A DNA stretch of 64,000 bases from an uncultured Actinomycetes bacterium. Lineage in GTDB: Bacteria > Actinomycetota > Thermoleophilia > Gaiellales > Gaiellaceae. Made by a program: the position numbers and the translations under genes. Numbering within the stretch: position 1 is the first letter of the stretch; the number at the start of each line of letters is the position of its first letter. The DNA is taken from the NCBI GenBank assembly GCA_963815945.1, contig CAWFIN010000006.1:20166-84165 (forward strand), in the 5' to 3' direction. Positions 5,699-22,743 of this stretch are shown piece by piece. The notes under the pieces are model-generated. The model made no database searches. It saw only the letters and a program-made list of their open reading frames with translations, and was not told the DNA's origin.

Positions 5699-7074
5699 TT
5701 GACGAGCGCCGGTCGCTGGTACGCGGCCGCGCCGGGAATGAGCGGGTTCGCGTCCGTGCCGAGCCACTGCTCGAGCAGAGCTGCGTACACCGCACGGAAG
5801 TCGCTGGTCGGAAGCAGGTTCCCCTGGGCGTCGAGACCACCGGTGAGGCCAGGGAACGTCCCGACCTGCTGCCCCTTCGCCCTCGTTCCGATGACGAATC
5901 CGACGCCGGCCGACCCGTGGTCGGTCCCGGCGGAGGCGTTCTCCGCCGCACGCCGGCCGAACTCCGACCAGACGTGCACGAGCACGCGGTCGGCGACGCC
6001 GCGCGACTCGAGGTCACGCTGGAAGGCGAGCAGCGAATCGGAGGTGAGCTGGAGCCCGCTGCTCAGCGTGCCCGCCTGCGTCGCATGCGTGTCGAAGTGG
6101 CCGGGCGAGGTGATCGACACGACGCGAAGCGGCAAGCCCTCGGCGATCATCTCCGCGAGGCCCGCGAGCCGGTGCGGGAACGGATCGGTCGTGGCCGGAT
6201 ACGCGACCGGGCTCTTGAAGCCGTACCGGAGCGAGCCGAGCTGCTGGTAGAGAGCGTTCGACTCGACCGCGATCGTGCCCGCCTGCTTCAGCCCCGCGTC
6301 GGTCGACTTGGCGTGGGCGGCACCGATGTTCGCGGACTCCTCGATGATCGACGACTCGAGGGGATGGGCCGGGAGGCCGGGCGCGGCGAACGTGTACTGG
6401 TCGGCCGCCTGGAGCGTCGCCACCGGCACCTTCGCCGTCGCGAGCGCCGGCTGGAGGGCGACGTCCAGCGTCAGGCCCTGCAGCGGGTTGTCCTGCGTGC
6501 CGACCGCGTCGAGGTACCGGCCCATCCAGCCGGTACGGAGGTTCGCGTCGGTCGCGCCGACCTCCCAGTAATGGCGGGATGTGAAATGGGACTTGTCGGA
6601 GTTCGCGTACCCGATCGCCGGCAGCACCGAAACCTTCCCCTCGCCGTGGAGGGTTGCGATGCCACTCGCGGCGGAATGCCAGCGAAGGCGGGCGTCCTCG
6701 GCGAAGGGCCGGCCCGAGCTCTGCGAGAGAGCCAGGGTCGGGCGGAGCGAGTAGTAGGCGGGGTCGCCGGCCGGGAACAGCACCGAGAGCGCGTCGATTC
6801 CACCCGCCAGGAAGACGGAGACGAGCACGCGCTGCGTCGACGGCGCGAGCGAGGCGGCTTGTGCGATCCCGTCGTCGAAGGCGTACGAGCTCAGGTTGGC
6901 GCCGCCGTAGACCGCGAGCGCGAGCCCCGCGGCACGCGACACGAAGCCGCGGCGGGTGAGGCCGGTGCCGGCCGGGAGCGGCATTCCCGGCTCGATCCCC
7001 GGCAGTCCACGCCCCGCCTCTGCGGTCGCCCGCCGCAGGAACTCCGTCCGGTTGCAGTCGCGGCAGTTGCTCAT
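5695..7074 (-). CDS. DUF1501 domain protein (sulfatase/alkaline-phosphatase-like) with Tat-type signal
   Basis: 459 aa from ATG 7074 (ATGA overlap with the DUF1800 stop). LTRRGFVSRAAGLALAVYGG; FLAGGIDALS; SPGHFDTH; WSEFGRR..GTDHG. The listed 659-aa ORF extends spuriously upstream. Confidence 0.85.
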   Translation of the reverse strand: MSNCRDCNRTEFLRRATAEAGRGLPGIEPGMPLPAGTGLTRRGFVSRAAGLALAVYGGANLSSYAFDDGIAQAASLAPSTQRVLVSVFLAGGIDALSVLFPAGDPAYYSLRPTLALSQSSGRPFAEDARLRWHSAASGIATLHGEGKVSVLPAIGYANSDKSHFTSRHYWEVGATDANLRTGWMGRYLDAVGTQDNPLQGLTLDVALQPALATAKVPVATLQAADQYTFAAPGLPAHPLESSIIEESANIGAAHAKSTDAGLKQAGTIAVESNALYQQLGSLRYGFKSPVAYPATTDPFPHRLAGLAEMIAEGLPLRVVSITSPGHFDTHATQAGTLSSGLQLTSDSLLAFQRDLESRGVADRVLVHVWSEFGRRAAENASAGTDHGSAGVGFVIGTRAKGQQVGTFPGLTGGLDAQGNLLPTSDFRAVYAALLEQWLGTDANPLIPGAAAYQRPALVK

Positions 7075-8372
7075 CAGGCGGTCTGGAGGTCGGGAGAGGA
7101 AGCGATCAACCGCCGCACGGCGGTCTCGACATCCGAGGCGAGGTTCTTGCGCGCAAGTTGCGCCTTGGCGAACCTGGTGACGAGGTCGCGTGTCTCGGGT
7201 GTGATCGTCGGGAAGCCCCAGAACTGGATCGAACGGTCGACGAGCTTCGCCGGATCGCTCGGAGAGTCGGTCGGCTGGCCGGCTCCCTGTACGAGCGCGG
7301 CGATGAACCAGCGCGCGCGGAAGGTCGCCGTGTCGAGCCAGCGGGTGTAGTCCCAGCCGCCGACATCGGGCGGGTAGAACAGCTGCTGCCCGGCCGACTG
7401 GCCGAGCGTCCACCAGGTCGAGGTGTCGATCCCACGCCCGCGCATGCGCAGGAGGCCGGCGTTGAACACGACCGGCGACTTGAGCATCCTCGGCCCGGTG
7501 TAGAGGGCCGGGTGCTTGAGGATCGCCTCCACGACCGGGAGGATCTGGCGCTGCGCATAGAGCGCCTGGAGCCCTGCAAGCGTGGCGGCGTCGTAGCGGA
7601 CGGGCACGAAGTAGCTCCAGAGCTTCGAGACGAAGAACGAGGGGTGCAGCTTGTGGTTCAGGCAGAGGTTGCACGAGTCGTGCCAGTCGTACGGGCCGCT
7701 CTGGCCGAAGATCGTCTTCGTGCCCGTGTCGTGCTGCCGAACGTCATAGGTGAACGGGGTGATCACTCCCTTGTTCACCGAGCCTCGCCAGCCGGTCAGT
7801 GCGCGGGCCTGCTCCCGCACGTCGGTCTCGGTGTACGCGCCACGGTTCGCGCCGAGAGTGAACAGCTCCATCATCTCGCGCCCGTAGTTCTCGTTGGGAT
7901 GTCCCTTGACGTTCTGGTTGCCGTTCAGCCAGACGAGCATCGCCGGATCCTGCGTCACCCCGACCAGCAGGTCGGCGAACGAGCCGAGGGCGTTCTGTCT
8001 GAACAACTCGTTCTGGTCGAGCATCAGCTTCTGCGACGACACTCCCTGGTTCGAGGTCGCAAACCAGCTGTGCCAGATGAGCGTCATGCGCTCGATAAGC
8101 GGCGCGGAGGTGCGCACCATCCGGTCGAGCCACCAGAGATGGTCGTGACCGTACGCGTCGTACGGAGCGATCGGCCTGCCTTTTTCGTCGTGCGGCTCGG
8201 GCCCGACGAGCTGGAGGCTGGCGGGATGGGTGAGCGAGGCGACCGCTGCGTCGAGGCCGAGCTTCGAGAGTTTTACCGCCTCGCCGGCGCGCGCGCCAAC
8301 CCCTGCGCGCCAGAGAAGCCGCTCCGCCTGCTCCTTGCCGAACGGACCGCTGTAGACGGGGACTCCGCTCAT
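7074..8372 (-). CDS. DUF1800 domain protein
   Basis: Intact 432-aa ORF with ERMTLIWHSWFATS, NENYGREMMELFTLG and DVREQARALTGW, as I recall for DUF1800. The usual partner DUF1501 is immediately downstream. Confidence 0.85.
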   Translation of the reverse strand: MSGVPVYSGPFGKEQAERLLWRAGVGARAGEAVKLSKLGLDAAVASLTHPASLQLVGPEPHDEKGRPIAPYDAYGHDHLWWLDRMVRTSAPLIERMTLIWHSWFATSNQGVSSQKLMLDQNELFRQNALGSFADLLVGVTQDPAMLVWLNGNQNVKGHPNENYGREMMELFTLGANRGAYTETDVREQARALTGWRGSVNKGVITPFTYDVRQHDTGTKTIFGQSGPYDWHDSCNLCLNHKLHPSFFVSKLWSYFVPVRYDAATLAGLQALYAQRQILPVVEAILKHPALYTGPRMLKSPVVFNAGLLRMRGRGIDTSTWWTLGQSAGQQLFYPPDVGGWDYTRWLDTATFRARWFIAALVQGAGQPTDSPSDPAKLVDRSIQFWGFPTITPETRDLVTRFAKAQLARKNLASDVETAVRRLIASSPDLQTA

Positions 8373-8439: not shown

Positions 8440-10323
8440 TCAGACGCCGAGCCCGGCGACGGCCGGGCCTTCGATCACGTCCGCATCTCGGGCGACGAGG
8501 GTGGCGTAGCGGCCGCCACGCGCGACGAGCTCGTCGTGGGTGCCGATCTCGGCGACGGAGCCACCGTCGAGGACGACGATCTGGTCTGCGTCGCGAACGG
8601 TCGAAAGCCGGTGGGCGATCGCGATCGTCGTCCGTCCCTCGACGAGCCGGTCGAGCGCCTTCTGGACGGCGCGCTCGGTTTCGGTGTCGAGCGCCGAGGT
8701 CGCCTCGTCGAGGACGAGGATCGGCGGGTTCCGAAGGATCGCGCGGGCGATGGCGAGCCGCTGCTTTTCGCCCCCCGAGAACCGATAGCCGCGCTCGCCG
8801 ACGACCGTGTCGTACCCGTCGGCAAGAGACGAGATGAGGTCGTGGATCTGCGCTGCCGCGGCCGCAGCCTCGATCTCCTTGTCGGTCGCGTTCGGTTTTG
8901 CGAAGCGCAGATTGTCGCGCACGCTCGCGTTCAGGAGATACGTCTCCTGCGAGACGACCCCGACCGCCGAGGCGATCGACGCGAATGTGAGCTCGCGCAC
9001 GTCGACCCCGTCGATCGTGACAGCACCGCGCGTGACGTCGTAGAGCCGCCCGACCAGGTAGCCGAGGGTCGTCTTCCCAGCTCCCGTCTCGCCCACGATC
9101 GCCGTCTTCGTCCCAGCAGGAACATCGAAGGCGATCCGCTTGAGCGCCCAGTCGTGGCCCTCGTAGCGGAACCACACGTCGTCGAGGGAGACGTCTCCGC
9201 GCAGGTCGTGCACCTCGCGCGTTCCCTCCTCGATGTCCACGCGCAAGTCGAGGTACTCGAAGATCCGGTCGAAGAGCGCGAGCGACGCCTGGACGTCGAC
9301 CGAGATCGAGAGCAAGCTGCCGACCGGGGCAAACAGACGGGTCTGCAGCGTGGTGAAGGCGACCAGGGTGCCGATGGAGATCGAGGTCGCATCCTTGGAG
9401 ATCGCGAAGCCGCCGAACCAGTACACGGCAGCAGGCATCAGCGCGAACACCATCTGGATCGACGCCATCATCCAGCGCCCCGTCATGCGGCTCCGGATCT
9501 CGAGACCGGCGAGACGGCTCGACTCACCGTCGAAGCGCTCGGCAAGCTCCTGCGATCGTCCCATCGTCTTCCCGAGCAAGATCCCGGAGACCGACAGCGA
9601 CTCCTGGACGAGCGAGGAGATATCGGCCATCGACTCCTGCCGCTCGGTCGCGATCTTCCGCCGCTGCCTGCCGACCCGGCGCGTCATCCAGACGAAGAGC
9701 GGCATCAGCGCGAGCGCGAAGAGCGCGAGCTGCCACGAGAGCAGGAACATGGCGATCACGACCGCGATCACGGTCGTCACGGTCGAGACGACCGAGGTCG
9801 CGGTGGACGTGAGCACGTTGTCGACCCCGCCGATGTCGTTCGCGATCCGGCTCTGCACCTCACCCGTGCGCGTGCGCGTGAAAAACGCGAGCGAGAGTCG
9901 CTGGAGATGGCGGTAGACGGCGGTCCGGAGGTCGTGCATCACGCTCTGGCCGACCTGGGTCGAGTAATACGACTGGATCACTCCGAACGCGCCGGTGATG
10001 ACCGCGATCGCGACCATCCCGCAGACGAGCTCGGTGAGCAGGACCATGTTGACCTGGGGCGGGTTGTACTGCGTCTGAATGGCGGTGTCGAGGATCGCGC
10101 GCAGCAGAAACGGCGAGACGACCCCGAGTGCCGACGAGATCACGATCAGGAAGAAGACGAACGTCAGCTTCGCCCAGTAGGGACGGAACAGCCTCACGAT
10201 CCTGCGCCCGTGGGCGCGGCGAACGGCCGGATCGGCAGGGCGCGTTACGTCTTCACGGGGCGACCACGGCCCCCTGCCGCCGCCGCCACCGCCGCCACCA
10301 CCTCCGAACCCTCCCATCCCCAT
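8440..10323 (-). CDS. ABC exporter, fused permease and ATPase (MsbA/CydDC-like architecture)
   Basis: Intact 627-aa ORF. Six-helix exporter domain, then Walker A GETGAGKTT, signature FSGGEKQR and Walker B ILVLDEATSALD. Gly-rich N-terminus. Confidence 0.9.
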   Translation of the reverse strand: MGMGGFGGGGGGGGGGRGPWSPREDVTRPADPAVRRAHGRRIVRLFRPYWAKLTFVFFLIVISSALGVVSPFLLRAILDTAIQTQYNPPQVNMVLLTELVCGMVAIAVITGAFGVIQSYYSTQVGQSVMHDLRTAVYRHLQRLSLAFFTRTRTGEVQSRIANDIGGVDNVLTSTATSVVSTVTTVIAVVIAMFLLSWQLALFALALMPLFVWMTRRVGRQRRKIATERQESMADISSLVQESLSVSGILLGKTMGRSQELAERFDGESSRLAGLEIRSRMTGRWMMASIQMVFALMPAAVYWFGGFAISKDATSISIGTLVAFTTLQTRLFAPVGSLLSISVDVQASLALFDRIFEYLDLRVDIEEGTREVHDLRGDVSLDDVWFRYEGHDWALKRIAFDVPAGTKTAIVGETGAGKTTLGYLVGRLYDVTRGAVTIDGVDVRELTFASIASAVGVVSQETYLLNASVRDNLRFAKPNATDKEIEAAAAAAQIHDLISSLADGYDTVVGERGYRFSGGEKQRLAIARAILRNPPILVLDEATSALDTETERAVQKALDRLVEGRTTIAIAHRLSTVRDADQIVVLDGGSVAEIGTHDELVARGGRYATLVARDADVIEGPAVAGLGV

Positions 10324-10359: not shown

Positions 10360-10812
10360 TCAGCCGATCCCGAAGCGCCTGTCGAGCGAGTACAGCCGCG
10401 ACGGCCAGATCGCGACCACGAGGCCCGGGATGCCGAGCGTCATGTCGCGGGCGATGCTCCAGAACCCGACGCTCTGGTGGGCGAGCGTGCCGAAGCAGCC
10501 GCAGTCGAGCTGGAGGCCCCGCGCCCACGCCTGAACCTGCGCGATCAGGAACGCCACCATCAGGACGCAGGTAAAGATCGCCGTCGCGCGAGTGAACAGC
10601 CCGACGAGCAAGTAGAAGCCGGCGAAGACCTCCACGAACGGGAGCGCATACGCGAACGGCTGGACGAAAACGTGCGGCAGGAGCTTGTAGAGGGAAACCT
10701 GTGCGTGGAAGTGCTCGAGGTCGAGGATCTTCGCGATACCGGCGGTCAGCCAGATCGCCCCTGCCAGGAGCCGGAGCGCCAGCCCGGCCCAGGGCAGTAC
10801 GGAGCTACGCAC
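10360..10812 (-). CDS. MauE/DoxX-type redox-associated membrane protein
   Basis: 150 aa, four TM helices, LQLDCGCFGTL motif. 8-nt overlap with the upstream thioredoxin gene. Confidence 0.7.
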   Translation of the reverse strand: MRSSVLPWAGLALRLLAGAIWLTAGIAKILDLEHFHAQVSLYKLLPHVFVQPFAYALPFVEVFAGFYLLVGLFTRATAIFTCVLMVAFLIAQVQAWARGLQLDCGCFGTLAHQSVGFWSIARDMTLGIPGLVVAIWPSRLYSLDRRFGIG

Positions 10813-11599
10813 CAGCCGCCTGGACGAGCTGCTGCCGAAGAAGTGCGTTGGGCTGCTCGCCGTCGGAGGCGAACGTGACGCGGCCCTTCGGGTCGATCAC
10901 GTAGAAGGTCGGGTACGACGCCACCCGGTAGGCGTTCGACACGGGTCCCGGCGACCCGGGCGAGGTGAAACTGCCTGGGTGCGAGCTCGGGTCGAGCAGC
11001 GCCGGGAAGTCGAAGCCGTAGTAGAGGTGGTAGGCAAAGACGCTCGGCGCCGTCTCCCCGTCGGCGTTGACCGAGACGAAGGCGTACTTCCCCGCCGGCA
11101 TCGACTTCGAGAGTGTGCGGATATGCGGTGCCTCCGCATTGCAATGCGGGCACCAGGTGGTGAAGAACTCGAGCAGCGTGGCCTTCCCAAGAGAGTCCGA
11201 CAGGCTCACCTTCTTGCCTGTCGGCGTCTTGAGCGTGAACGCGGGCGCCTTCGTGCCCGCCTTGAGCAGGTTCGGGTTCGACGGCGGGCTCGCCGCCGAC
11301 GCCGGCTGGCCCTCGACCTCGCCGACACCCGGCTCTGTCGTTGGATGAAATCCGATGTCGTGCGCTGCCGAGACGAGTGACGCCGGGGCGTTCCGGTCCG
11401 CCGCGGAAACGGTGGACGCAGGAGGCGTCGACGGCGAAGTCTTCTTCGTCAGCAGGAGAACCCCGACTACGACTGCGACGCCCAGCGCCAGGATGAGCGT
11501 CGCGATGAGCACGTTCCTCCGCGCTTGCATGACCGGCTTCGGAATCGGCGGCGGCGGCACTGCTCGCCGGTCGGCTTTGAGCCGGGACTTCCTCCCCAT
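10805..11599 (-). CDS. Membrane-anchored TlpA/ResA-like thiol:disulfide oxidoreductase
   Basis: 264 aa. TM anchor, Pro/Ser linker, thioredoxin fold with LLEFFTTWCPHCNAEAP. ATGA overlap with the SCO gene. Confidence 0.85.
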   Translation of the reverse strand: MGRKSRLKADRRAVPPPPIPKPVMQARRNVLIATLILALGVAVVVGVLLLTKKTSPSTPPASTVSAADRNAPASLVSAAHDIGFHPTTEPGVGEVEGQPASAASPPSNPNLLKAGTKAPAFTLKTPTGKKVSLSDSLGKATLLEFFTTWCPHCNAEAPHIRTLSKSMPAGKYAFVSVNADGETAPSVFAYHLYYGFDFPALLDPSSHPGSFTSPGSPGPVSNAYRVASYPTFYVIDPKGRVTFASDGEQPNALLRQQLVQAAGA

Positions 11600-12192
11600 C
11601 AGGCCGCTCCTTGCAGTGCTTTGAGGTCATGGACGACCGCGTCGGCCGTCACTGTGGAATCGTAGATCAGCCGCTCCTGCTGCTGCGGATCGATCAGGAT
11701 CTCGAAGGTCGAGTGAGTGACCGTTCCCTTCGGTCCAGCAACCGCCGCGACGTGGAACCTCTTCCACACCGCCTCAAGCTGGGAGGGGGTGCCGGTGAGA
11801 TACCGAAATGCGGGCACGAGCTGGTGCTCGCGGGTGAACTTCTTCACGGAGGCCGGCGTGTCGCCCTTCGGGTCGACGCTGACTGCAAGAACGCGAAGTC
11901 CGGCGCGGCGAGCGGTCGCCGTGTGCAGGACGCGGTTCAGCGTTCCTGCGACCACGGGGCAGACATCGGGGCAATTCGTGTAGAGGAACGTGACGATCGC
12001 GTAGTGGCCCGGCGCCAGCGGGAGACCTGCCGCGTGCCCGGCCTGGTCCTGCAGCGTGAATCCGGGCGCGGGGCGCGGCGGCGTAAGCGCCGTCCCGCGG
12101 AACGCCGGAGCCGGCGTTCCCTTGGTTCCCCCGCATCCCGCACCGGCCACCGCCAGAGTCGCGAGAACGACCGCACCGACAAGCCTGAGCAT
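11599..12192 (-). CDS. SCO1/SenC copper chaperone, probable lipoprotein
   Basis: 197 aa from ATG 12192. LAVAGAGC lipobox-like signal; YTNCPDVCP copper motif with a downstream His (VTHSTF). ATGA overlaps at both ends. Confidence 0.85.
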   Translation of the reverse strand: MLRLVGAVVLATLAVAGAGCGGTKGTPAPAFRGTALTPPRPAPGFTLQDQAGHAAGLPLAPGHYAIVTFLYTNCPDVCPVVAGTLNRVLHTATARRAGLRVLAVSVDPKGDTPASVKKFTREHQLVPAFRYLTGTPSQLEAVWKRFHVAAVAGPKGTVTHSTFEILIDPQQQERLIYDSTVTADAVVHDLKALQGAA

Positions 12193-12833
12193 CACGCTCG
12201 ACGCGCTCTTCTGCGCCGCACGAACAGGACCACGGCCAGCAGCGCAAGCACGACTGCCACGCCTCCGGCGATCTCGAGCCGATCGTTTCTGGTGGACGAG
12301 CTCGGAGAGGTCACCGTCACGTGCGAGAGGTCGATGCCGCGACGCGCCGCGAGCTTCTGCACCACTCCACCCGCCGCCGCGACGAGTGCATTTCCTGCGC
12401 TCGTGCCAGGCGCTGGGAGGGCCGCCACGAGCGCCCGGTCGGCCGCCGGGGCCGGACCGTGCTTGTAGACGCCGAAGCCGTTTGGCATGACGACAAGCAC
12501 CTCTCCCTTGTACCAATAGAAGAGCTCCTGCCCCAGGAACCGGGAGTACCGCACCGGTTTGCCGAAGAGGACCGGGACCGACCCCAAGTCGTATGGCTTC
12601 GAGATCACGGCGACGCGGATCTGGAAGCCGGCCTTCTTCGCTGCCGCGAGCAGCGAGAGCAGCTGCGCCGAGTGCGCCTTGTCGATGTTCGCGTCGAAGG
12701 GCAGGAACGCTGGCTGCGTGATCAGAAAGTCGCTCGCGGGATCGCCGTCGGCAATCGCGGCCGGGACAACCGCGAGGCCGAGAGCGACCCCAGCGAGCAT
12801 CGCCACGAGCCGGTGGCGCGCAACGACGTTCAT
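12192..12833 (-). CDS. Exported protein with C-terminal membrane anchor, family not recognised
   Basis: Intact 213-aa ORF. Signal LVAMLAGVALGLAVVPAAIA, soluble domain (FQIRVAVISKPYDLG, YWYKGEVLVVMPNGFGVY), C-terminal helix GGVAVVLALLAVVLFV followed by RRRRARRA. ATGA overlaps on both sides. Confidence 0.6.
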   Translation of the reverse strand: MNVVARHRLVAMLAGVALGLAVVPAAIADGDPASDFLITQPAFLPFDANIDKAHSAQLLSLLAAAKKAGFQIRVAVISKPYDLGSVPVLFGKPVRYSRFLGQELFYWYKGEVLVVMPNGFGVYKHGPAPAADRALVAALPAPGTSAGNALVAAAGGVVQKLAARRGIDLSHVTVTSPSSSTRNDRLEIAGGVAVVLALLAVVLFVRRRRARRA

Positions 12834-14569
12834 CCGGTTGCGTGGTCGACGAGGAAGGCGTTGAACGGCTGCCTGCCACGCGGTGTCACTTGCAGGCCGA
12901 GGCCCCAGTGCCCGACCATGACGAGCGCGGGCGCCGAGTGGGTGTAGACACCCTTCCCGGTCTCGGTCAGCCGGTAGGCCTGCTGCTGCATCTCCATGTC
13001 GAGCATCGAGAAGTTGAGGATGACATCAGCGCCGCGAACGGGCACCCCGTTCTTCGAAATCGTGACCGCAAAATCGTTCGGCACGGCGGCGCGGTTCGGA
13101 GAGACGACCACTGCGAGCTTGTAGCCTCCGGCGGTCACGGTTCTCGCCACCGGCCCGGGGCCGACCCTTGCGAGGGCTTTCGACTCGAGAGCGAGCGCGC
13201 GGGCAGGCGGAGGCAGGCTCGACAGGAGCGCTGCCGCGAACACCGCTACGGCGACGATGACCGCCTCGGCGCTGACGAGGCGGCGCAGAAGAGACGCCGC
13301 GGACGGACCGAGCTCCGCGCGATCCCGCGCTGCGGCGGCGAGCCGCGGCTTCGTTCGCAGCAGGTTCACGGCCGCAAGCGCGATTGCGAGGGCGAGCAGC
13401 GCGGCCTTGGCGAGGATCGTCTTGCCGTACGAGGTGTCCCAGAGAGCGGCGAGGATCGGGAGATGGATGATCGTCGCGGCGATGCCCGAGCCGAGCAGGA
13501 CGATCACCGAGACGAGCGCAACGTTCGAGAACCGCGGCACGCACACCGAGAGCACGGCGACGCGTCGCTCGGCGGAGACGCTTCGCCAGAGAACGAGCAG
13601 ACCGACCAGGCCGCCGATCCACACCGACCCGGCGGCAACGTGAAGCCAGTCCAGGGCCAGCGAAAGCGTTCGCGGTGCCGTCTGCGCGGCGTGGCCCGCC
13701 ACCCCGGGTATCACCATCACCGTCGCCGCTGCAGCAAAGGCGCCCGTACCGGCGAGGAGCTCGACCACCGAGCGCTGCGCCCGTTCTGGCCGGTCGACCC
13801 AGAGGGCAACCGCGGCCGCCGCGACGAAGAGGGCGAAGCAGATCTCGAGGTCGACATAGCCCCGGCCGAAAGCAGAGGTGCGAACCAGCGGTAAGAGAGC
13901 CCCGACGTCGAAGGCCGAACGCAGCGCGAACTCTGCCGTCGCGACGAAGAGGTACACCGGAATCGCCACCAGCCCGGCTGCCGCCGCAACGTAGAACGCG
14001 ACCGAAAGCGGCCGGAGCCGCGTCCCGGGAACGCGCGCAGCAACCGGGCGGACGATCGCGATCCGGAGGATGAAGAGGCCGATCGCGGTCATCACCGACA
14101 GCAGAGCCGCCCACCGAGTGATCAGGAGCGAAGGCGTCGCCGCGGTCTCGGAGATCGACGGGATCACGAACTGCGGCGCCGGGCCGGGGTTGGGCCCAAC
14201 GGCGAACGTGAAGGCGCCGCGCACCGGGTGGCCGTCGACCGAGATCGCCCGCCAGTACACGAGATACCACCCCTCCTTGAGATGCCGTACGGGGACGAAG
14301 AGGGTGTTCGGGTCGGCGGCGCTGCGTGCAACCGGCGCAGTGGCCTCCTGCACGGGCGGGTCGCTCGAATCGGTGACCGAGATCGTCGCGAACCGAGGCT
14401 CGACCGCCTCGTCGAAGGTCAGCGAGACCCTCGGCGGCGAGCTGGCGAGAATCCCGCTCGCCGAGGGAAACGTCCTGATCAGGTACGCGTGGGCATACGC
14501 AACTGCCGGCAGCGCGAGCCCGACCAGGACGGCGGCTGACGCCGCGACAACTCGGCCCCGGCCTCTCAC
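12830..14569 (-). CDS. CopC-CopD fusion copper transport/resistance protein (YcnJ-like) with C-terminal YtkA/FixH-like domain
   Basis: Intact 579 aa. Signal ends AYA-HAY. CopC sandwich (RVSLTFDEAVEP, GWYLVYWRAISVDGHPV), multi-helix CopD region, C-terminal Ig-like part (DFAVTISKNG..MLDMEMQQQ). GTG 14569 overlaps the ycnI stop (GTGA). Confidence 0.85.
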   Translation of the reverse strand: MRGRGRVVAASAAVLVGLALPAVAYAHAYLIRTFPSASGILASSPPRVSLTFDEAVEPRFATISVTDSSDPPVQEATAPVARSAADPNTLFVPVRHLKEGWYLVYWRAISVDGHPVRGAFTFAVGPNPGPAPQFVIPSISETAATPSLLITRWAALLSVMTAIGLFILRIAIVRPVAARVPGTRLRPLSVAFYVAAAAGLVAIPVYLFVATAEFALRSAFDVGALLPLVRTSAFGRGYVDLEICFALFVAAAAVALWVDRPERAQRSVVELLAGTGAFAAAATVMVIPGVAGHAAQTAPRTLSLALDWLHVAAGSVWIGGLVGLLVLWRSVSAERRVAVLSVCVPRFSNVALVSVIVLLGSGIAATIIHLPILAALWDTSYGKTILAKAALLALAIALAAVNLLRTKPRLAAAARDRAELGPSAASLLRRLVSAEAVIVAVAVFAAALLSSLPPPARALALESKALARVGPGPVARTVTAGGYKLAVVVSPNRAAVPNDFAVTISKNGVPVRGADVILNFSMLDMEMQQQAYRLTETGKGVYTHSAPALVMVGHWGLGLQVTPRGRQPFNAFLVDHATG

Positions 14570-15147
14570 GTGAGCTGGCGCTTCCCTCCACCCGCGACGA
14601 GCGCGATCACGCCGAGCACAACACCGACGGCGCCGAGGACGAGGGCGATGATGGCGAGCGTCGAGCTTCCGCCCCCGAACGAGCTCATTGCCTCGACCGT
14701 CGCTGTGGGCGTGTCGGACGACTCGGGGCCATTCCAGTCGACGACCGACCCGTCGGAGTACGTCTGCTGAACGCCGAACGAGTAGGTCTTGCTCGAGGCT
14801 GCCAGGCCGAGGAACTGGAACAGCGAGTCCTCGCCGGTCGGCGTGCTGCCGCCCGACCAGGTCACCTTCTGGATCACGGCCGACTCACCGGAACCGGTTT
14901 GCTGGACATCGCGCTTCCATCCTGGCGCCGCGACGAAGGAGTCGATCGAGAACCCCTCCGGGAGCGTGAGGACGACTTTGGTCGTCGTCGCGTTCTCCTT
15001 CTCGGTGGGGACGACGAGGCTGTACAGCTCCGATTGCCCTGAGAGGGAGACGGACGGGCTGATCCGCGCGTGCGCGAAGGCACCGGAGGCCGCGGTCGCG
15101 GCGACCACCGCGGTCGCGGCGAGAGCGAGTGTGAGGCGGGCGTTCAT
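14566..15147 (-). CDS. ycnI: YcnI-family (DUF1775) copper-binding protein with C-terminal membrane anchor
   Basis: 193 aa. Signal ends GAFA-HARISPS. VVPTEKENATTTKVVLTLPEGF, PGWK and VTWSGG blocks resemble B. subtilis YcnI. C-terminal TM helix. Confidence 0.85.
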   Translation of the reverse strand: MNARLTLALAATAVVAATAASGAFAHARISPSVSLSGQSELYSLVVPTEKENATTTKVVLTLPEGFSIDSFVAAPGWKRDVQQTGSGESAVIQKVTWSGGSTPTGEDSLFQFLGLAASSKTYSFGVQQTYSDGSVVDWNGPESSDTPTATVEAMSSFGGGSSTLAIIALVLGAVGVVLGVIALVAGGGKRQLT

Positions 15148-15157
15148 GAGGCTCCTT

Positions 15158-16004
15158 TCATGTCACATTCAGGGTGAACGGCGCCGTCACGAGACGGCCA
15201 CCGACTTTGGTCTGGAGGAAGAGGCGCCACTTCCCGGGCGCGGGCAAGAGGACGCCGACGTTCAGCTTTCCGGGTGTCGTCGACGTGCCCGTGACCTTCG
15301 CGGGCCCGAGGACACTCGTGCAGCCGGTCGCACCGGGCGAGCAAACGTGCGTGTGGAAGTAGTCGAGCGTTCCGCGGCGGAAGAAGATCGCGTGCGCGAG
15401 CGCCCCGTACCAGGGGGCGAAGCTCGCGGGACGGCCGTGCGGATCCGTCACGTTCACCGTCACGTCCTGGGCCTGAAGCGCTTTCAGGTGGGAGGCGCCG
15501 CCGAGCTTGAACCTGTAACCGCCTGCGTCGACGATGGCATCCGGAGGCGGGCAGCGCCTTCGGTTTGTAGGCGCCTGCGACCCTGATCTGGTCGAAGAGC
15601 TGGAAGTTCGTCTGCGGCCCGCTCGCCGGGTACACGTCGATCACGACCCGGTACGAGCCCGAAGCGGGGAAGACGACTTGCTGCGAGATCGTTCCGTCCG
15701 CGGCGACAGACGGATGCCGGTGAATGAAGTGCGCAAGATCGCGGCGGACGAGGATCAGATGGACGCCGGTGTGTGGTCCGGGCCCGGTCTTGAAATCCGT
15801 GAGCGCCGTCCCGTCAGGCTGGCGAATCACGAACGAAACGGTGGTCGGGCGCCCGGGACGGACAGGGACAGCAGGCTTGAAATCCGCGAGCGAGTAGACG
15901 TGGGCCGCCTGGATCGTGGGCAGGCCATTCGACGAACCTCCGCAGCCGGCGAGCGCAGGCACGACGAGCAGGAGGGCCAGAAGAACACGGACGCGGACGG
16001 TCAT
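15158..16004 (-). pseudogene. Two-domain lipoprotein of unknown family with a repeated F-x-H-x-H motif; one frame change
   Basis: ATG 16004 follows GAAAGGAA and makes an ATGA overlap with the upstream stop. Lipobox LVVPALAGC. First half has AHFIHRHP, second half DYFHTHV. The halves are in different frames (change near 15540). Confidence 0.55.
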
Positions 16005-16488
16005 GTGATTCCTTTCGGGAAGAGGAAGAAGCGGTGCGGCGGGACGTAGCCGCCGATCTCGAGCACGATCTCGGCGTTCTTCGTAAGCGGGACCGATGTC
16101 GACAGGGCCGGCCACGGGCCGCCCGTTGACGTACGCGCGCACGGGCGACCGCGACGTGAACGACGCGAGACGGTGGGCTCCGAGTGGCTGGCCCCAGACG
16201 CGGAAGAGGTCGCCGACGGTTCGCGGGCCCCGTGTCGAGACCGAGAACACGCCGATCGGTGTTCTCGTCCGTACCGTGTCCGAGCAGGCGCCGATACCCG
16301 CCGGGATGACCACGGCATTGCGCCTCGGCGAAGAGCTCGACATGCACCCGGAAGGTGCCGGCGGAAGAACAGGTCGACTCCTGGACGACGCGTCCCGGCG
16401 AAGGCCTGTAGGCAGCGCCCGGGCCGATCGGAACCGGCTTCACCGAGGGATCCCCCGCGAGGGCAACCGCTGCGAGCAGAGCGATCAT
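16001..16488 (-). pseudogene. Exported protein, family not recognised; two frame changes
   Basis: ATG 16488 (ATGA overlap). MIALLAAVALAG..TFRVHVELFAE | AVVIPAGIGACSDTV..LFRVWGQPLG..VNGRPVAGP | ..VPLTKNAEIVLEIGGYVPPHRFFLFPKGIT. Shifts near 16330 and 16100. Confidence 0.45.
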
Positions 16489-17429
16489 CGCCGGGGTCGC
16501 CGAACGTCGTCGAAATCGGGCAGAAAGCTCAGGGCTGCCGCGGCCGCGCCCCCGACGAGCGCGAGCCCACAGGCGAGACGTACCGAGGTGGCAGGAAGCG
16601 CCGAGATCACGACTCCGTGCCAGAACACGGGCAGCGAGCCGATCGTCGCAACTGCGGCGATCCCGCCAATGACACCGGCGACGTGAACGCGGCGCCGGTC
16701 GTGGAAGACGACGAGCAGCACGGCGAGGACCGCGCCGACGACCACCCCGGCGGCGATCTGGAACCACGCGACTCGACCGTTCGGAGCGTCTCTGGCAGCG
16801 AAGGTCGTGATCGCGACGAGCGCACCCAGCCCGGCTGCGGTCCCGAGCCCGACCGTGAGGGTCGACCGCCAGCCGCGCCGTAGCGCGGCCACCGCAGCCA
16901 CGGCAACGATGAAGACGGCGGTTCCCGCGAGCCACGGCCACGCCGACGGGCTTCGCACCCGCCAGAACGTGCCTCTGATGACGGCCGCGCGGCCGTCGAC
17001 GCTGATCGGGACCGAGAAGCTCCCGGCACGGCCCAGGCTGGCTCGCGGGCGGAGGGGCGAGGCGGTGGTCGTGCCACGCGATCGAGCTTCCACTACTCAC
17101 TCGAACCCAGCCGGAGCCGGGCTTCGAAACCAGCTTGTCTGCCGCCGCCGTGGGGGAACCGGCGTTCACCCAGACCCCGTCAGGCCCTATCCGCAGGACA
17201 GGCTCGCGCAGAAGCCCACGGACGACCACGCGATGCCCCCCGGCGACCGAGACCTGGAGCGACCGGTCGCCGTCGAGCACCCGGACGCTGACCCCGGGGA
17301 TCGACTGGACCGCCGGATCGATGTCCAGCCGAAAGTCGAGCGCGACGACCGGCGCGCGGCCGTGCGCCGCCGCCTGCGCGGGAAGCGCAAGGGCGGCGAG
17401 GCCAGGACGGTGACGAGACGTGCGCGCAC
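16485..17429 (-). pseudogene. Exported domain with predicted N-terminal His plus four C-terminal TM helices, family not recognised; two frame changes
   Basis: GTG 17429. MRARLVTVLA | GLAALALPAQAAA-HGRAPVV (shift near 17400); beta-rich domain with SIAWHDHRL; shift near 17050; then four hydrophobic helices (WLAGTAVFIVAVAAVAAL and others). Confidence 0.45.
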
Positions 17430-17430
17430 G

Positions 17431-17916
17431 AGGCGCCTTGAAGGTGAACGACGCCTTCTCGCCGTTGACGACGACGCTGACCTTGTACGTGTCCCCGGGC
17501 TTGAGCGACACGTTGTTGCCGTAGTGGAAGTCGGATGCGCCCTTGGTGACGCCCTGCATCGCGACCACGGCGAGCTTCGTCCCCGCCATCGACATTGCCG
17601 TCGTGTCGGTGATCGTGATCTTCGGCTTCACGTTCGAGACGACGGCTCCGGTCGAGGCTGACTTGACGTGCAGCTCGAGGTGCCGTTCTGTCTCGCCCTT
17701 CATGGCCATCGAGCTCCCCATCATCGACCCCGAAACCATGACTTCCCCTGTCTTCAGTTTCATCTTCTTCGCGTCCGCCTGCGTGTACATGGTCTCTTCC
17801 GGACCGACCTTCAGCGTCAGCGAGTAACTCGGCGTCTTGGTGGTACGGGTGATGACCGCCGCCGAAGCCGCGGCTGCAGCGACGAGGGCGACGAGAAGGA
17901 CTGCGATTGCGCGCAT
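17431..17916 (-). CDS. Secreted Met-rich protein, P19/FetP/Tp34-like metal-binding fold (tentative); no stop codon found in frame
   Basis: ATG 17916 follows GGAAGGAG. Signal MRAIAVLLVALVAAAAASA. MVSGSMMGSSMAMKG, ERHLELHV and DFHYGNNVSLKPGDTYKV are reminiscent of the HLEADIH / GPHYGxN motifs of the periplasmic iron-transport (P19) family. The frame runs on past FTFKAP. Confidence 0.45.
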
Positions 17917-17960: not shown

Positions 17961-18565
17961 CTAGGCGGTAGGCGGCGCGCGCCCGGCGGCCGCAAACGCA
18001 AGCGGCGACCGCGGGCCGACCGAGACGGCCCGGCGCAAGCTGAGCGGCGACAGGCCGAGGAAGACGCGGCGGGCGGAGAGTCGCCCGGCGGCGAGACGAC
18101 CTCGCAAGCAACGCGGAGCAGCGCCGCGACGGCGGCTCCGGCGACGGCTGAGGCGACAAGCGCCCACCAGCCGCCATGGCCGAAGACGCCGGCGAAGCCG
18201 CTCGGGTGACCGACCGCGAAGACGCTCTCCAGCAACTCCTGGATGACGTAGATAGCGACGAGGCTCGCCGAGGCGAGCAGCCAGAGCCCGGCGAAGGAGC
18301 GACGCGGATGGTCGTCGCCACCCGCGACGAACGCGCGGGCGACGCGGAGCAGGAAGGAGCCGGCGCCGAGGCCGATCAGGAGCACGAGCCAGGGCGCAAG
18401 CGAGTTCAGGTACGAGTGCCCCTGCGCCGCGAGCGCGCTGTCCGCGTGCGATCCGTATGCCAGCGTGTAGCGGAGCTGGTGGACGGCGAATGCCGCAAGC
18501 GGCAGCAGCAGAACCCCGCGGCCGGAGACGACCCTGCGGGAGCGTCCGGGGGCCATGCTCGCCAT
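17961..18565 (-). pseudogene. Polytopic membrane protein of unknown family, paralogue 1; 3' end unresolved
   Basis: ATG 18565. LLLPLAAFAVHQLRYTLAYG, QGHSYLNSLAPWLVLLIGLGAG, LWLLASASLVAIYVIQELLES, GHGGWWALVASAVAGAAVAALL. The nearest usable stop (TAG 17961) is in another frame. Confidence 0.5.
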
Positions 18566-18605: not shown

Positions 18606-18836
18606 GGTGACTTTCAGGAGACCCTTCATTCCGCCGGCCGCTTGGCCGGGCACGGTGCAGAGGTACTCGTATGTTCCGGCCGTCTTGAAGATCACTCGCA
18701 GCGTGGCACTGCCACCGGGTGAAATGACCGGAGTTTGGACGCCGGCACACGAGTTGCCCAGCCCACGAGTCTGCTTCGAACAGACTCGGAAGGCGTGCTG
18801 GAGTTTTCCGCGATCGGTCAGCCTGAACGCCACCGC
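18606..18836 (-). pseudogene. Cupredoxin domain fragment lacking its N-terminal strands, joined to truncated paralogue 2
   Basis: VAFRLTDRGKLQHAFRV..SATLRVIFKTAGTYEYLCTVPGQAAGGMKGLLKVT follows the plastocyanin-like C-x2-P-G-H-x3-G-M pattern, but with Gln (18642-18644) where the His ligand is expected. No own start, signal or in-frame stop. Confidence 0.45.
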
Positions 18837-19264
18837 CCGCAGCGAGAGAGGCGACGAGTGCCCACCAGCCGCCGTGGCCGAAGACACCGCCAACGCCACT
18901 CGGGTGACCGACCGCGAAGAAGCTCTCGAGCAGCTCCTGGACGACGTAGATCGCGACGAGGCTCGCCGCGGCAAGCGCCCAGAGCCCGACGAAAGAGCGA
19001 CGAGGACGGTTGTCCTCCTCCGGCAACGAAAGCTCGGGCGACACGGACCAGAAACGAGCTCGCTCCGAGGCCCATCAAGAGCACCAGCCATGGCGCGAGC
19101 GAGTTCAGATAGGAGTGCCCCTGTGCGGCGAGCACGCTCCCCGCATTCGAGCCGTAGGCCAGCGTGTAGCGAAGCTGGTGAACGGCGAACGCAGCCGCCG
19201 GGAGCAGTACGAGCCCGCGACCGCGGACGATGCTGCGAAGACGCGAGTGCGTCACGGCGGGCAT
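18837..19264 (-). pseudogene. Polytopic membrane protein, paralogue 2; frameshifted and 3'-truncated
   Basis: ATG 19264. LVLLPAAAFAVHQLRYTLAYG..QGHSYLNSLAPWLVLLMGLGAS..VARAFVAGG | EEDNRPRRSFVGLWALAAASLVAIYVVQELLES..GHGGWWALVAS, with a shift near 19020. By eye clearly homologous at the DNA level to 18176-18565. Confidence 0.5.
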
Positions 19265-19282: not shown

Positions 19283-20788
19283 TTACGGAACGGTCGCCCG
19301 CGCCGCCGCGGCTTCCTCCTCGAGCACCGCCTGGAGCTCGGGAGTGGTCGGAGCAGCCCTGTACGGCTGCTCGTCCGGCACGTCGGTCTCGTGGTAGACG
19401 CTCTCGGCGTTGACCTCCCAGATGTCGTGGCGCGCGCCCGTCAGCAGGTTGTCGACCGCGCGCATCGCCGTCAGCATCGAGTGGTCGGAGTTGTTGTAGC
19501 GGTGGAGGCCGTTCCGGCCGACCTGCTGGAGATTCTCGGTCATCTCGAGCCAGTCACGGATGATGCCGACCCGCTCGGCGTACTCGACGTCGTAGATCGG
19601 GTACGCCTTCGGGACCCGGATCGCGAAGCCGCGCTCGACCTTGCTCCGCGGAGCGAGACCGAGCTGCTCGAGCTCCCGCGCGGCCAGCTCGACGAGGTCG
19701 TCGTCGTCCATCATCCAGAGGTCGTCTCCCTCGAAGCAGAAGTACTCGAGGCCGATGCAGGCCTTGTCGGGGTCCGGAACCATCCAGGGGCTCCAGGAGC
19801 GGTAGTTCTGGATCCGGCCGACGCGAACGGCCGGCTCGTGGATGTAGAGCCAGTTGTCCGGGAACAGATCCTCGCCGTCCACGACGAGCGCCACGGTGAG
19901 GAAGTCGCGATACCGCAGCCCGAGTGCCGCGTCGAGGATCTCGTCCGGAACGCGCGGGCTCGCCATGCGAACGGTCTCGCGAAGCGGCAGCGACGAGATG
20001 ACCGCCGCGGGCTCGTACACCTCGCCGCCCGCCTCGACACGGACGACCCTTCCGTCTTCGAGCTCGAGGGTCTCGACCGGCGCGCTGAGGCGAACCTCGC
20101 CTCCCTCGGCCTCGATCGCCTCCGTCATCGCGTCCCACATCTGCCCGGGCCCGTACCGCGGGTAGTTGAACTCGGAGATCAGGCTCTTGACCTTGTTCCC
20201 CTTGTTGCCGAAGAACGCGGCCTTCGCGGCCGAGAAGAACGACAGCCCCTTGATCCGCTGCGCGGCCCATTCGGCACGGATCTCGGTCGTCGGAACGCCC
20301 CACAGCTTCTCGGTGTAGGTCTTGAAGAAGAGCTCGTAGAGGCGCTTGCCGAAGCGGTTCGACACCCAGTCCTCGAACGACTCCTCCTTGCGCTTCGGCA
20401 TCACCGCCGCCTTCACGTACGAGGCGACGCAGCGTGTCAGCTCGACCGGGCCGAGCTTGCGAATGACGTCCGGGCCTCGCAGCGGGTAGTCGAGGAAGCG
20501 TCCGTTCCAGTAGATCCGCGACATCCGCGGCCGGAGGAGGAACTCCTCGCCGAGGATCTCGTGCCAGAGCATGTCGACCTCGATCGACTTCGTGAAGAAG
20601 CGATGGCCACCCAGGTCGAACCGGTAGCCGTCGATCTCGACGGTCTTCGCGAGCCCGCCGACCTGGTCCTCCGCCTCGAGCACGACCACACGGCGTCCGG
20701 CCCTTGCGAGCAGGTACGCAGCGGTCAGCCCGGCGGGTCCACCGCCGAGGACGAGCACCGTCCCGTGTTCGTTGCCGTTTTCCGTCAC
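19283..20788 (-). CDS. NAD(P)/FAD-dependent oxidoreductase (amine-oxidase / UDP-galactopyranose-mutase-like fold)
   Basis: Intact 501 aa. Dinucleotide-binding VLVLGGGPAGLTAAYLLARAG..VVVLEA..GG; GGHRFFTK; YTEKLWG; NYPRYGPGQMW. Confidence 0.8.
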   Translation of the reverse strand: MTENGNEHGTVLVLGGGPAGLTAAYLLARAGRRVVVLEAEDQVGGLAKTVEIDGYRFDLGGHRFFTKSIEVDMLWHEILGEEFLLRPRMSRIYWNGRFLDYPLRGPDVIRKLGPVELTRCVASYVKAAVMPKRKEESFEDWVSNRFGKRLYELFFKTYTEKLWGVPTTEIRAEWAAQRIKGLSFFSAAKAAFFGNKGNKVKSLISEFNYPRYGPGQMWDAMTEAIEAEGGEVRLSAPVETLELEDGRVVRVEAGGEVYEPAAVISSLPLRETVRMASPRVPDEILDAALGLRYRDFLTVALVVDGEDLFPDNWLYIHEPAVRVGRIQNYRSWSPWMVPDPDKACIGLEYFCFEGDDLWMMDDDDLVELAARELEQLGLAPRSKVERGFAIRVPKAYPIYDVEYAERVGIIRDWLEMTENLQQVGRNGLHRYNNSDHSMLTAMRAVDNLLTGARHDIWEVNAESVYHETDVPDEQPYRAAPTTPELQAVLEEEAAAARATVP

Positions 20789-20854: not shown

Positions 20855-22348
20855 CTAGGCCGGCTTGCGGACGTAGACGACCGCCTGGAGCGGCTTGAAG
20901 TAGTTCAGCTTCTGGAGGATCTCGTTCGTTCCGACGAAGCCGATCCGGCGGAAGCGCGGGTCACGCGCGATGTCACGAGTCCACGTCTGCGAGGTCAGGT
21001 AGACGGCCCTCGTCCAGCGCGACTGCCAGGCGCGGTAGTCGCGGAAGACCGGCGAGACGACGACCAGGTGCTGGCCTGGGCGAACGGACGCAAGCACCGG
21101 AGCGAGGTCGGCAGCGGGGGTGACGGCGTGGATCCGGTCGAGCGCGTCGCGCCAGTCCATCACCTGCTGGTCGCCGACAGGGCCGAGTGTCGTGGCGAAG
21201 CGATACCCGGGCCCGAGGTAGTAGCGGAGCACCGGCACCTGCTCGGGATGTGTGGAGAGAATCACGTCGCCGGGCCGGATGTCGGGCGAGACGCCCGCCG
21301 CGATCGCGCGCGCGTTCTCCTTGTTGTCCTGCTGGACGTAGTTCGTCCAGATCACGCAGACCGCGACGAGCGCGACGAGGCCGAGGCGCCCGGCACGGGC
21401 GAGGCCGGCCGCCGAGATCATCAGCAACGGCCCCAGCACGACCCCGAAGTAGCGGGTTGTCCATGCCGGCGTGATCTGGGAGGAGAGCCAGGCCAGGAGC
21501 ACGGTCGCGCCGACGACCGTGGCCAGCGAGAGAACCGGCCGGCGGGCGGGGTCGGAGCGACGGCGGATCGTGGCCGCGAGCCCGACGCCACCCGCGAGCA
21601 CGATCGCCGTGAACGGCGCGTCGCCGGAGAGCACCGCACCGGGCGCGAGCAACAGCGCATGGAGGCTCGGCGCCATCGCCCACGGCGCCGCGGTGTGCTT
21701 GCTCTGGGAGAGCAGCGTCGGCAGCCACGGCAGGTAGAGGAGCAGCATGATCCCGCCCGCGATCGCCGCTTCCTTCCACTTGTCGCGCGCGAACAGAAGC
21801 GTGGCGACCGCGTATCCGAGAACGAGGAAGAGGCCCCAGTTGTGCGTGTAGAGAATGAGCACGAGCGTCACGCCGAGGACCGGGAGGTAGCGTCGGCGGC
21901 CGTCCAGCACGCCGTGGACGTAGGCGATCGCGGCAACGAAGGAGAGCGCCGCGACCAGCGCGTACATCCGCGTCTCCTGCCCGTAGTAGGTCAGATACGG
22001 ATCGACAGCGGCGAGACCGGCGCAGATCCAGCCTGTGAGCGCGCCGAAGATCGAGCGGCCCGCCCAGTACGCGAGTGGGATGCAGGCCAGCGCGAAGATG
22101 AGCGACAGCGCGTGGGTCGCTCGCTCGCTGTCCCCGAACGCGCCCATCCAGACGTGCAGCAGGAGGTAGTAGAGGGGCGGCGAGCCGTCCTGGCGCAGGA
22201 GACCGGGGATCGCGGTCAGCGGGTGGTGAGCGATCCCGACGGAGAGGCCTTCGTCGATCCAGAACCCGGCGCCGAGCACGCGCGTGCGGATCCACAGCGA
22301 GACCGCCGTGATCAGCGCGAGCCCGGTCACCGTCGCCCAGACCGGCAT
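20855..22348 (-). CDS. Polytopic glycosyltransferase, GT39/ArnT-like (lipid-linked sugar donor type)
   Basis: Intact 497 aa. About 11 TM helices with an early FWIDEGLSVGIA loop motif and PPLYYLLLHVW, plus a C-terminal soluble domain. Confidence 0.7.
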   Translation of the reverse strand: MPVWATVTGLALITAVSLWIRTRVLGAGFWIDEGLSVGIAHHPLTAIPGLLRQDGSPPLYYLLLHVWMGAFGDSERATHALSLIFALACIPLAYWAGRSIFGALTGWICAGLAAVDPYLTYYGQETRMYALVAALSFVAAIAYVHGVLDGRRRYLPVLGVTLVLILYTHNWGLFLVLGYAVATLLFARDKWKEAAIAGGIMLLLYLPWLPTLLSQSKHTAAPWAMAPSLHALLLAPGAVLSGDAPFTAIVLAGGVGLAATIRRRSDPARRPVLSLATVVGATVLLAWLSSQITPAWTTRYFGVVLGPLLMISAAGLARAGRLGLVALVAVCVIWTNYVQQDNKENARAIAAGVSPDIRPGDVILSTHPEQVPVLRYYLGPGYRFATTLGPVGDQQVMDWRDALDRIHAVTPAADLAPVLASVRPGQHLVVVSPVFRDYRAWQSRWTRAVYLTSQTWTRDIARDPRFRRIGFVGTNEILQKLNYFKPLQAVVYVRKPA

Positions 22349-22723: not shown

Positions 22724-22743
22724 CGCTATACCATGCCACTTGC

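Follow-up and report, generated by a model that had tools for sequence, protein, structure and literature searches.

Five conserved protein families without annotation cluster with YcnI, CopC-CopD and SCO1 genes in Thermoleophilia

The 64,000-nucleotide stretch of DNA analyzed here (the window; contig CAWFIN010000006.1 of assembly GCA_963815945.1, positions 20,166 to 84,165 of the forward strand) comes from an uncultured bacterium of the Gaiellaceae, within the Thermoleophilia. It contains a long minus-strand run of genes in which copper and redox proteins of known type are interleaved with exported or membrane proteins belonging to no described family. Four of the latter are called here open reading frames (ORFs) A to D, and the fifth, MembDup, is a membrane protein found in two copies. 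All five are real conserved genes, clustered with those of YcnI and the CopC-CopD fusion (CopCD), or with that of SCO1. MembDup forms a fifth family without description in the conserved module, which an initial annotation of the window, singling out ORF_A to ORF_D, had missed. The type of system is known; Pfam, NCBIfam and the PDB contain no description of its accessory families. Their genomic context and their conserved His, Cys and Glu residues make the five families candidates for a role in copper handling, and the cluster is probably a Thermoleophilia-specific, enlarged YcnI/YcnJ high-affinity copper-acquisition system joined to a SCO1/TlpA branch for CuA metallation.

The initial annotation could not place any of the four ORFs in a family, and the searches agree with it. 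The window proteins A, B, C and D have no match in Pfam or NCBIfam, and profiles of all four return no PDB sequence, the frames of B, C and D having been repaired by hand from three-frame translations. Pfam analysis of 53-57 individual homologues each of B, C and D gives no match over threshold, MembDup has no Pfam or NCBIfam match, and a look-up of cluster members returned no informative names. When each unknown family was compared by hhalign with YcnI, CopC, CopD, YtkA, SCO1, TlpA, the P19-like protein and each other, none of the matches exceeded 55%, the positive control SCO1 versus TlpA reaching 100%. The families of the four ORFs are well populated, with 53-65 intact homologues per family from related loci alone.

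Relatives were found in at least 582 genomes (one genome per species), the best 81 loci were kept with ORF_A as anchor, and the cluster proteins were located in these loci by tblastn. Almost all of the kept loci (80-81) are titled as metagenome-assembled genomes (MAGs) of Gaiellaceae, Solirubrobacterales, Thermoleophilia or unclassified Actinomycetota. The actinobacterial scope proposed at first is therefore narrowed: the families occur in Thermoleophilia-type genomes and were seen solely there, not in Actinobacteria generally. Among the 81 loci, D and CopC-CopD are each present in 68, YcnI in 67, B in 64, C in 60 and MembDup in 44, directly upstream of D; SCO1 follows with 38, TlpA with 31, MauE with 5 and the P19-like protein with 4. 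The canonical gene order is MembDup-D-C-B-YcnI-CopCD-A-(SCO1-TlpA). In 30 loci the synteny is wider and includes a downstream ATP-binding cassette (ABC) exporter, a DUF1800 protein and an upstream ctaB. The neighborhood is also conserved outside this group: of the 38 full-length loci without wider synteny, 30 hold YcnI and CopCD, 31 D, 28 B and 25 C, in at least eight different gene orders and orientations. In the Solirubrobacterales, a variant retains C, D and A alone, the last often fused to SCO1; its neighbors are housekeeping genes without relation to the module (a penicillin-binding protein, malate synthase and BipA).

Gene fusions tie the families further to each other and to SCO1. D and B are joined in P0122 and P0123, with a single ORF of 584 aa in a JGI contig and another example of 570 aa, and the ORF is continuous in locus L083. 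Fusions of A to SCO1 are represented by five proteins of separate 50%-identity clusters and occur also at L072:10821-12179, in a short-read-style assembly ('k141' SMAG), while a P19-like+A fusion is known from one protein, P0505. MembDup+D and D+C also look fused in places, probably as artefacts of calling genes on frameshifted assemblies. Thermoleophilia were not linked to these copper genes in any paper that a literature search returned. As a separate observation, a further family without description, of ~208-aa membrane proteins, lies between B and YcnI in 23 related loci (e.g. L083:4333-4956, L004:6864-7481 and L010:6832-7449) and is not present in the window.

ORF_D begins with a signal peptide ending in AxA↓HG, in which A20, A22 and H23 are nearly invariant among 53 homologues. 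The cleavage site AxA↓H deduced from sequence implies that the mature protein would start with His, which parallels YcnI (AFA↓HA) and the CopC domain (AYA↓HA) of the same cluster. The ectodomain is a beta-sandwich of ~125 aa with an invariant WH.HR motif (W119, H120, R123), a set of candidate copper ligands, and precedes five transmembrane (TM) helices that contain a conserved FWHG. AlphaFold, applied to the D+B fusion P0122, gives the beta domain of D predicted local distance difference test (pLDDT) values of 77-95 and the TM region values of 50-70; the Foldseek matches of this model are dominated by B. Sequence comparison led us to reject the ectodomain as a divergent YcnI, hhalign returning 0.2% against YcnI and 0.4% against CopC, and the 55% hhalign match of ORF_D covers just the signal peptide and the first residues.

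ORF_B comprises two tandem beta-sandwich domains, as modeled by AlphaFold in the natural D+B fusion (pLDDT of B mostly >90). The model displays two similar sandwiches, and profile support for an internal repeat is weak (12%). Domain 1 carries a conserved His motif, GPHTGVH...H.HPP, and domain 2 the motif ALAHAIFF...YFHTHVC...GC, with nearly invariant His and two Cys; the mean column identity of the family alignment is 59%. None of 57 members exceeds the PF13115 (YtkA) cut-off, a single one giving a faint YtkA signal (E 1.2e-3), and the C-terminal domain aligns with the YtkA domain of the cluster itself with an hhalign probability of 47% over 38 columns. Foldseek analysis of B reports generic tandem immunoglobulin (Ig)-like folds. 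A match to Zcp/DUF4198 has an E-value of 6e-6 over ~280 columns with a TMt of only 0.24, and no DUF4198 Pfam match exists in any of the 57 members. Most public entries of ORF_B homologues (P0131-P0240) are 425-450 aa long, with a spurious out-of-frame segment of ~160 aa ahead of the lipobox, and these extended gene calls would mislead family building.

ORF_C has an invariant H, E and H together with two nearly invariant Cys. It has >3285 database relatives, without a Pfam domain among the 120 matches listed, and its AlphaFold model has a pLDDT of 82, with a core >90. Foldseek reports no significant PDB structure match for it (best E 0.12, TMq <=0.35), the top matches being beta-grasp-like only: the transcobalamin beta domain, 3u7z and ThiS/MoaD-like proteins.

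ORF_A is composed of a signal peptide, an extracytoplasmic domain, a C-terminal TM helix and an RRRR tail. Its mature N-terminus displays an invariant GDPASD.L after an Asp that is itself nearly invariant (the window reads DGDPASDFL), and the extracytoplasmic domain the motifs DLG.VP, FLGQE and VVMPNGYG. An exhaustive search returned 1697 cluster representatives at E<=1e-3, the named relatives being Gaiellaceae MAGs. Assignment as a MYXO-CTERM/PVV-CTERM sorting-signal protein was rejected (18.2 bits for a cut-off of 27 and 16.1 for a cut-off of 20), the likeness being limited to the C-terminal TM helix and the Arg-rich tail; a TPM-like domain, also considered, has no Pfam or PDB-profile support and is not claimed. 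ORF_A is multiplied in some relatives: L072:9875-14676 holds tandem A and A-SCO1 fusion genes, and three A paralogues lie around the cluster in L083 (821-1252, 7455-7988 and 8179-8742).

Regarding MembDup, copy 2 has invariant residues including H26, R29, H47 and Y49, as well as Glu, and the motifs QE..LE, GHP and FGHGGWW. Copy 1 runs into a plastocyanin/azurin-type cupredoxin segment (18606-18845; PF00127, E 8e-5, 23.5 bits for a cut-off of 21.2), whose ligand motif C..PGQ..GM contains a Gln in place of the expected His. None of the 81 related loci contains a counterpart of this MembDup copy 1-cupredoxin arrangement, which may represent a cupredoxin with a membrane anchor, a duplicate in decay or an error of sequencing. 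The coordinates of all these genes are collected in Table 1.

Table 1. Genes of the cluster and its flanks in the window, with the evidence for each assignment
Feature	Coordinates	Strand	Characteristics
DUF1800 protein	7074..8372	-	after the ABC exporter
Fused ABC exporter, MsbA/CydC-like	8440..10323	-	PF00664, PF00005
MauE/DoxX-type membrane protein	10360..10812	-	PF07291, E 1e-26
TlpA/ResA-type membrane-anchored thiol:disulfide oxidoreductase	10805..11599	-	AhpC/Redoxin PF00578, PF08534; WCPHC motif
SCO1/SenC lipoprotein	11599..12192	-	PF02630, E 5e-23, 81.8 bits (cut-off 22.8)
ORF_A	12192..12833	-	213 aa, intact
YcnJ-type CopC-CopD-YtkA fusion	12830..14569	-	PF04234 72 bits, PF05425 67 bits, PF13115 37 bits
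YcnI (DUF1775)	14566..15147	-	PF07987, E 1e-15, 58.6 bits (cut-off 25)
ORF_B	15158..16004	-	~281 aa; one frameshift, ~15545; lipobox LAGC↓GG
ORF_C	16001..16488	-	~161 aa; two frameshifts, ~16320 and ~16094; small exported protein
ORF_D	16485..17429	-	~315 aa; two frameshifts, ~17400 and ~17030
P19-like, Met-rich exported protein	17428..17916	-	PF10634, E 1e-4
MembDup copy 2	17961..18565	-	~200 aa; 3-4 TM helices; one frameshift, ~18080
MembDup copy 1, His-rich membrane protein	18606..19264	-	from three-frame translation; frameshift ~19010
Amine-oxidase-like flavoprotein	19283..20788		upstream of the module
PMT_2 glycosyltransferase	20855..22348		upstream of the module
ctaB (heme o synthase)	22444..23958	+	NF003349 358 bits (cut-off 246), TIGR01473 325 bits (cut-off 210)

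The recognizable members (YcnI, the CopC-CopD fusion, SCO1, the TlpA-type redoxin and MauE) are what the initial annotation had named, each with its Pfam match. For YcnI, the inferred cleavage ...GAFA↓HARISP would give a mature N-terminal His, and segment 166-184 forms a C-terminal TM anchor. The fusion protein contains its three Pfam domains in order, all over cut-off, the NCBIfam CopC and CopD models staying under their equivalog cut-offs, and cleavage at AVAYA↓HAYL again gives a mature N-terminal His. SCO1 possesses a CPDVC motif (CxxxC) and the His of THS, and the TlpA-type redoxin stays under the NCBIfam cut-offs for ResA and TlpA. The P19-like call at the upstream end is marginal, PF10634 scoring 22.8 bits for a cut-off of 21. 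In L016, a homologue of 163 aa has no Pfam match at E<=0.05, and the fusion P0505 contains a clear PF10634 segment (E 4e-9). This gene has a Shine-Dalgarno sequence, GGAAGGAG, and lacks a stop codon in any frame near 17429 (17420-17450), before ORF_D; in relatives L001, L011, L016 and L023, a TAG or TAA stop lies at the GTG start of D or a few bases ahead of it, and some 4-5 nt seem to be missing from the end of the P19-like gene in the window. Just upstream of the module, the closest relative, L001, encodes an ArsP_1 permease and a metal repressor of CsoR type (PF02583; L001:2759-4281), where the window has the amine-oxidase-like flavoprotein and the PMT_2 glycosyltransferase instead.

At the other end, the ABC exporter lies 36 nt downstream of MauE, possibly in the same transcript, and stays under the cut-offs of all NCBIfam equivalogs. 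It resembles the thiol exporters CydC/CydD, though under their cut-offs, and it is 70-83% identical and occupies the same position in 30 related loci, being better conserved than the cluster proteins. The nearby ctaB, pointed out from the start, encodes a genuine heme o synthase scoring over the NCBIfam cut-offs, is divergent from the minus-strand run and recurs at the corresponding position in 24 or more related loci.

That all genes from 17916 to 10360 lie on the minus strand is borne out by the ORF listing and by frame tracking with the G+C content of third codon positions (GC3). The start/stop overlaps first listed were largely recovered, namely ATGA at 16488, 16004 and 12833, GTGA at 14569, 8 nt at 10812/10805, and the 10-nt gap at 15147/15158, which contains AAGGAG before 15147. 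The junctions at 12192 and 11599 do overlap, by 1 nt in a TGATG and not by the ATGA given for them. In contrast, the limits set for the operon (10360-17916) are arbitrary, since genes in the same direction continue from ~22348 to at least 7074, separated by gaps of 19-67 nt. A sigma-70 promoter scan returned 0 promoters, and terminator-like sites occur at chance level. The 4-nt overlaps at D/C, C/B, YcnI/CopCD and CopCD/A are kept in L001 and L082, and the same start/stop overlaps are found again in relatives at about 50% identity. In L082 (13617-13718) and L083 (7298-7399), gene calling places an ORF of 33 codons between CopC-CopD and ORF_A, overlapping both; in the window, the stop of CopCD and the start of ORF_A overlap each other directly. 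Because start/stop overlaps are common in high-GC actinobacterial operons, they are by themselves weak evidence for a shared pathway. The argument that tight coupling implies such a pathway, weak alone, gains its support from the neighborhood being conserved through rearrangements and from the gene fusions. Simple hydropathy and sequence inspection place every cluster member outside the cytoplasm or in the membrane.

Among the closest known systems is the Bacillus subtilis ycnKJI copper-acquisition operon, whose two core proteins recur here with their domain architecture and their mature N-terminal His, YcnI and YcnJ being extracytoplasmic Cu(II) binders that feed the CopD membrane domain (PMC8424229, PMC12362106, PMC13344008). 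YcnI binds Cu(II) through an N-terminal monohistidine brace (PMC8424229), Cu(II) is exchanged between YcnI and the CopC domain of YcnJ (PMC12362106), and YcnJ supports the aa3 and caa3 oxidases (PMC13344008). Unlike ycnKJI, no YcnK-type regulator was seen in the cluster analyzed here, whose core stands amid MembDup, D, C, B and A, in one co-directional run with SCO1, TlpA and MauE. Systems combining SCO1/SenC with TlpA serve CuA-site metallation and thiol reduction in Bradyrhizobium and Bacillus. The present SCO1 (CxxxC and His) and TlpA (CxxC) resemble them, both being membrane-tethered outside the cell, whereas SCO1 directly follows ORF_A here and is fused to it in several lineages. An ORF_A-SCO1 partnership finds no mention in the cited papers on copper and zinc handling.

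Two further comparisons concern ORF_B. The YtkA domain constitutes both the C-terminus of YcnJ and the B. subtilis lipoprotein CtaK, which has a role in CuA assembly (PMC13344008). Like CtaK, ORF_B is a lipoprotein of Ig-like beta-sandwiches in a copper cluster; it differs in its two domains, in scoring under the Pfam threshold and in its His/Cys motifs, where the YtkA domain of the window has the Met-rich SMLDMEM. Zcp/DUF4198 of Neisseria gonorrhoeae is a periplasmic metal buffer with Zn-bound (PDB 9mhl) and Cu-bound (PDB 9mhm) structures (PMC12663993). ORF_B is likewise extracytoplasmic and all-beta, in the size range of ~230-280 aa and with conserved His, but Zcp is Gram-negative and zinc-linked, and its TM-score of 0.24 is no better than those of generic tandem Ig-like proteins. 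As for ORF_D, its predicted N-terminal His on a beta-sandwich and its invariant WH.HR recall the histidine-brace copper proteins CopC, YcnI, PCuAC and lytic polysaccharide monooxygenases (PMC10952591), the difference being that this sandwich is joined to a five-helix membrane domain and has no DUF1775/CopC sequence homology.

Since the unknown families are His-based rather than Met-based, they would fit the handling of Cu(II) outside the membrane. In the mechanism that we propose, Cu(II) would be captured there by His-based sites and relayed to the CopD channel and to SCO1. With moderate confidence, the individual parts may be assigned as follows. ORF_B would be the capture or buffer lipoprotein, analogous to the YtkA-type CtaK or to Zcp, while ORF_D would provide, on its polytopic membrane anchor, a third N-terminal-His (histidine-brace-like) site beside those of YcnI and CopC. 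ORF_C may act as a small soluble carrier or redox partner, and ORF_A may be a SCO1-associated factor that docks with SCO1 or assists it at the membrane surface. TlpA and MauE, possibly with the ABC exporter, would hold the thiols of SCO1 and CoxB reduced.

Three of the four ORFs (15158-16004, 16001-16488 and 16485-17429) appear as fragments only in the ORF listing, 12192-12833 alone being intact as first annotated, so their integrity has to be weighed. Repair requires one frame change in B and two each in C and D, at the positions given in Table 1. An alternative, which we regard as very unlikely, is that in this genome B, C, D, MembDup and the P19-like gene are pseudogenes in decay and that only the intact YcnI-CopCD-A-SCO1-TlpA-MauE part works. 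It would account for the uneven distribution of the damage, as the 2.8 kb of 15158-17916 hold five frameshifts and lack one stop codon, and the 4.8 kb of 10360-15147 are free of such defects. However, ~29 stop-less switches of the coding frame on the same strand are dispersed over the full length of the window (G+C ~69%), roughly one per 2 kb, for example in 2604-3006, 42158-42904, 45721-46815, 56680-59417 and 61128-62800. The window was therefore treated as an indel-prone assembly, in which any ORF-based reading requires frame repair. The GC3 signal remains strong within every shifted segment, and each repaired protein aligns as one high-scoring segment pair, without internal stops, to the relative L001 at 75-84% identity. 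L001 (71-84% identity) has an intact B (278 aa) and an intact C (160 aa), and its own frameshifts fall elsewhere in the cluster, in the P19-like gene, D and TlpA; many relatives are long-read MAGs of the 'MFD' series. From the window-wide density and the different genes affected in relatives, we read the frameshifts in B, C and D as assembly indel errors rather than gene decay.

Granting that the genes are sound, their assignment to copper may be questioned in two ways. The unknown proteins may serve the biogenesis of respiratory or other envelope complexes, or another metal such as iron or zinc, and adjoin the copper genes through a shared client, e.g. cytochrome oxidase. This would agree with the nearby ctaB, whose position is kept in at least 24 loci, with a P19-like protein whose family is annotated as Fe2+ transport, with the zinc buffering by Zcp, the named metal-binding structural match of B (PMC12663993), with the ABC exporter resembling CydC/CydD, albeit under cut-off, and with the lack of metal-ligand residues in A. 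The tightest and most persistent partners are, however, YcnI and CopC-CopD rather than ctaB or subunits of the oxidase. The inspected loci showed no oxidase subunit, the P19-like gene occurs in just 4 of the 81, rearranged loci keep the module yet lose ctaB from the neighborhood, and A is fused to the copper chaperone SCO1; a role in envelope biogenesis or with another metal is thus unlikely, though it ranks first among the rivals. Next comes the explanation that the four ORFs are unrelated envelope proteins standing beside copper genes by gene order inherited within one class. All loci do stem from Thermoleophilia-type MAGs, the 30 loci of extended synteny include the clearly unrelated DUF1800 protein and PMT_2 glycosyltransferase, and overlapping start and stop codons are, as a matter of general knowledge, common in high-GC genomes. 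Mere inheritance would hardly keep the module through at least eight orders and orientations at 28-60% protein identity with wholly changed flanks, nor yield two independent kinds of gene fusion within it; its members, moreover, are all extracytoplasmic with ligand-type conserved residues, which makes this explanation quite improbable. Pseudogenization ranks last.

Several observations nevertheless weigh against an enlarged copper-acquisition system. The window yielded no copper-responsive regulator, and a gene of CsoR type lies upstream in L001 only. The locus counts are not independent, as the 81 loci are the best matches to one anchor within one class, and the 30 loci of wider synteny say little on function because the whole region is syntenic in them. 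SCO1, TlpA and MauE are missing from most loci. The structural matches of B are mostly generic Ig-like proteins, Zcp being no better; for D, homology to YcnI or CopC could not be detected, and the model of its TM region is of low confidence. Lastly, the family alignment of ORF_A contains no conserved His, Cys or Met.

The reading of the cluster as an enlarged YcnI/YcnJ system joined to SCO1/TlpA can be carried further. MembDup, D, C, B and A might together constitute an extracytoplasmic Cu(II) capture-and-relay machine not described before, in which D would represent a new class of histidine-brace membrane protein (a second importer beside CopD, or a copper-dependent membrane enzyme) and A a new obligate partner of SCO1 in CuA assembly; this stronger form is speculative and seems to us unlikely. 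Bacterial copper import and copper delivery to respiratory oxidases have been called underexplored in work on Bacillus (PMC13344008, PMC12362106). The cluster adds to this field five conserved families without annotation, each with hundreds to thousands of relatives in soil metagenomes and tied genomically, in two cases by fusion, to YcnI, CopC-CopD and SCO1. The candidates that they offer are a His-rich two-domain lipoprotein (B), a polytopic protein with a predicted N-terminal His (D), a small protein without a relative of solved fold (C) and a putative SCO1 partner (A). If their role in copper trafficking is true, these families would extend the copper-trafficking toolkit of Gram-positive bacteria and would provide annotations for the abundant and poorly studied soil Thermoleophilia.

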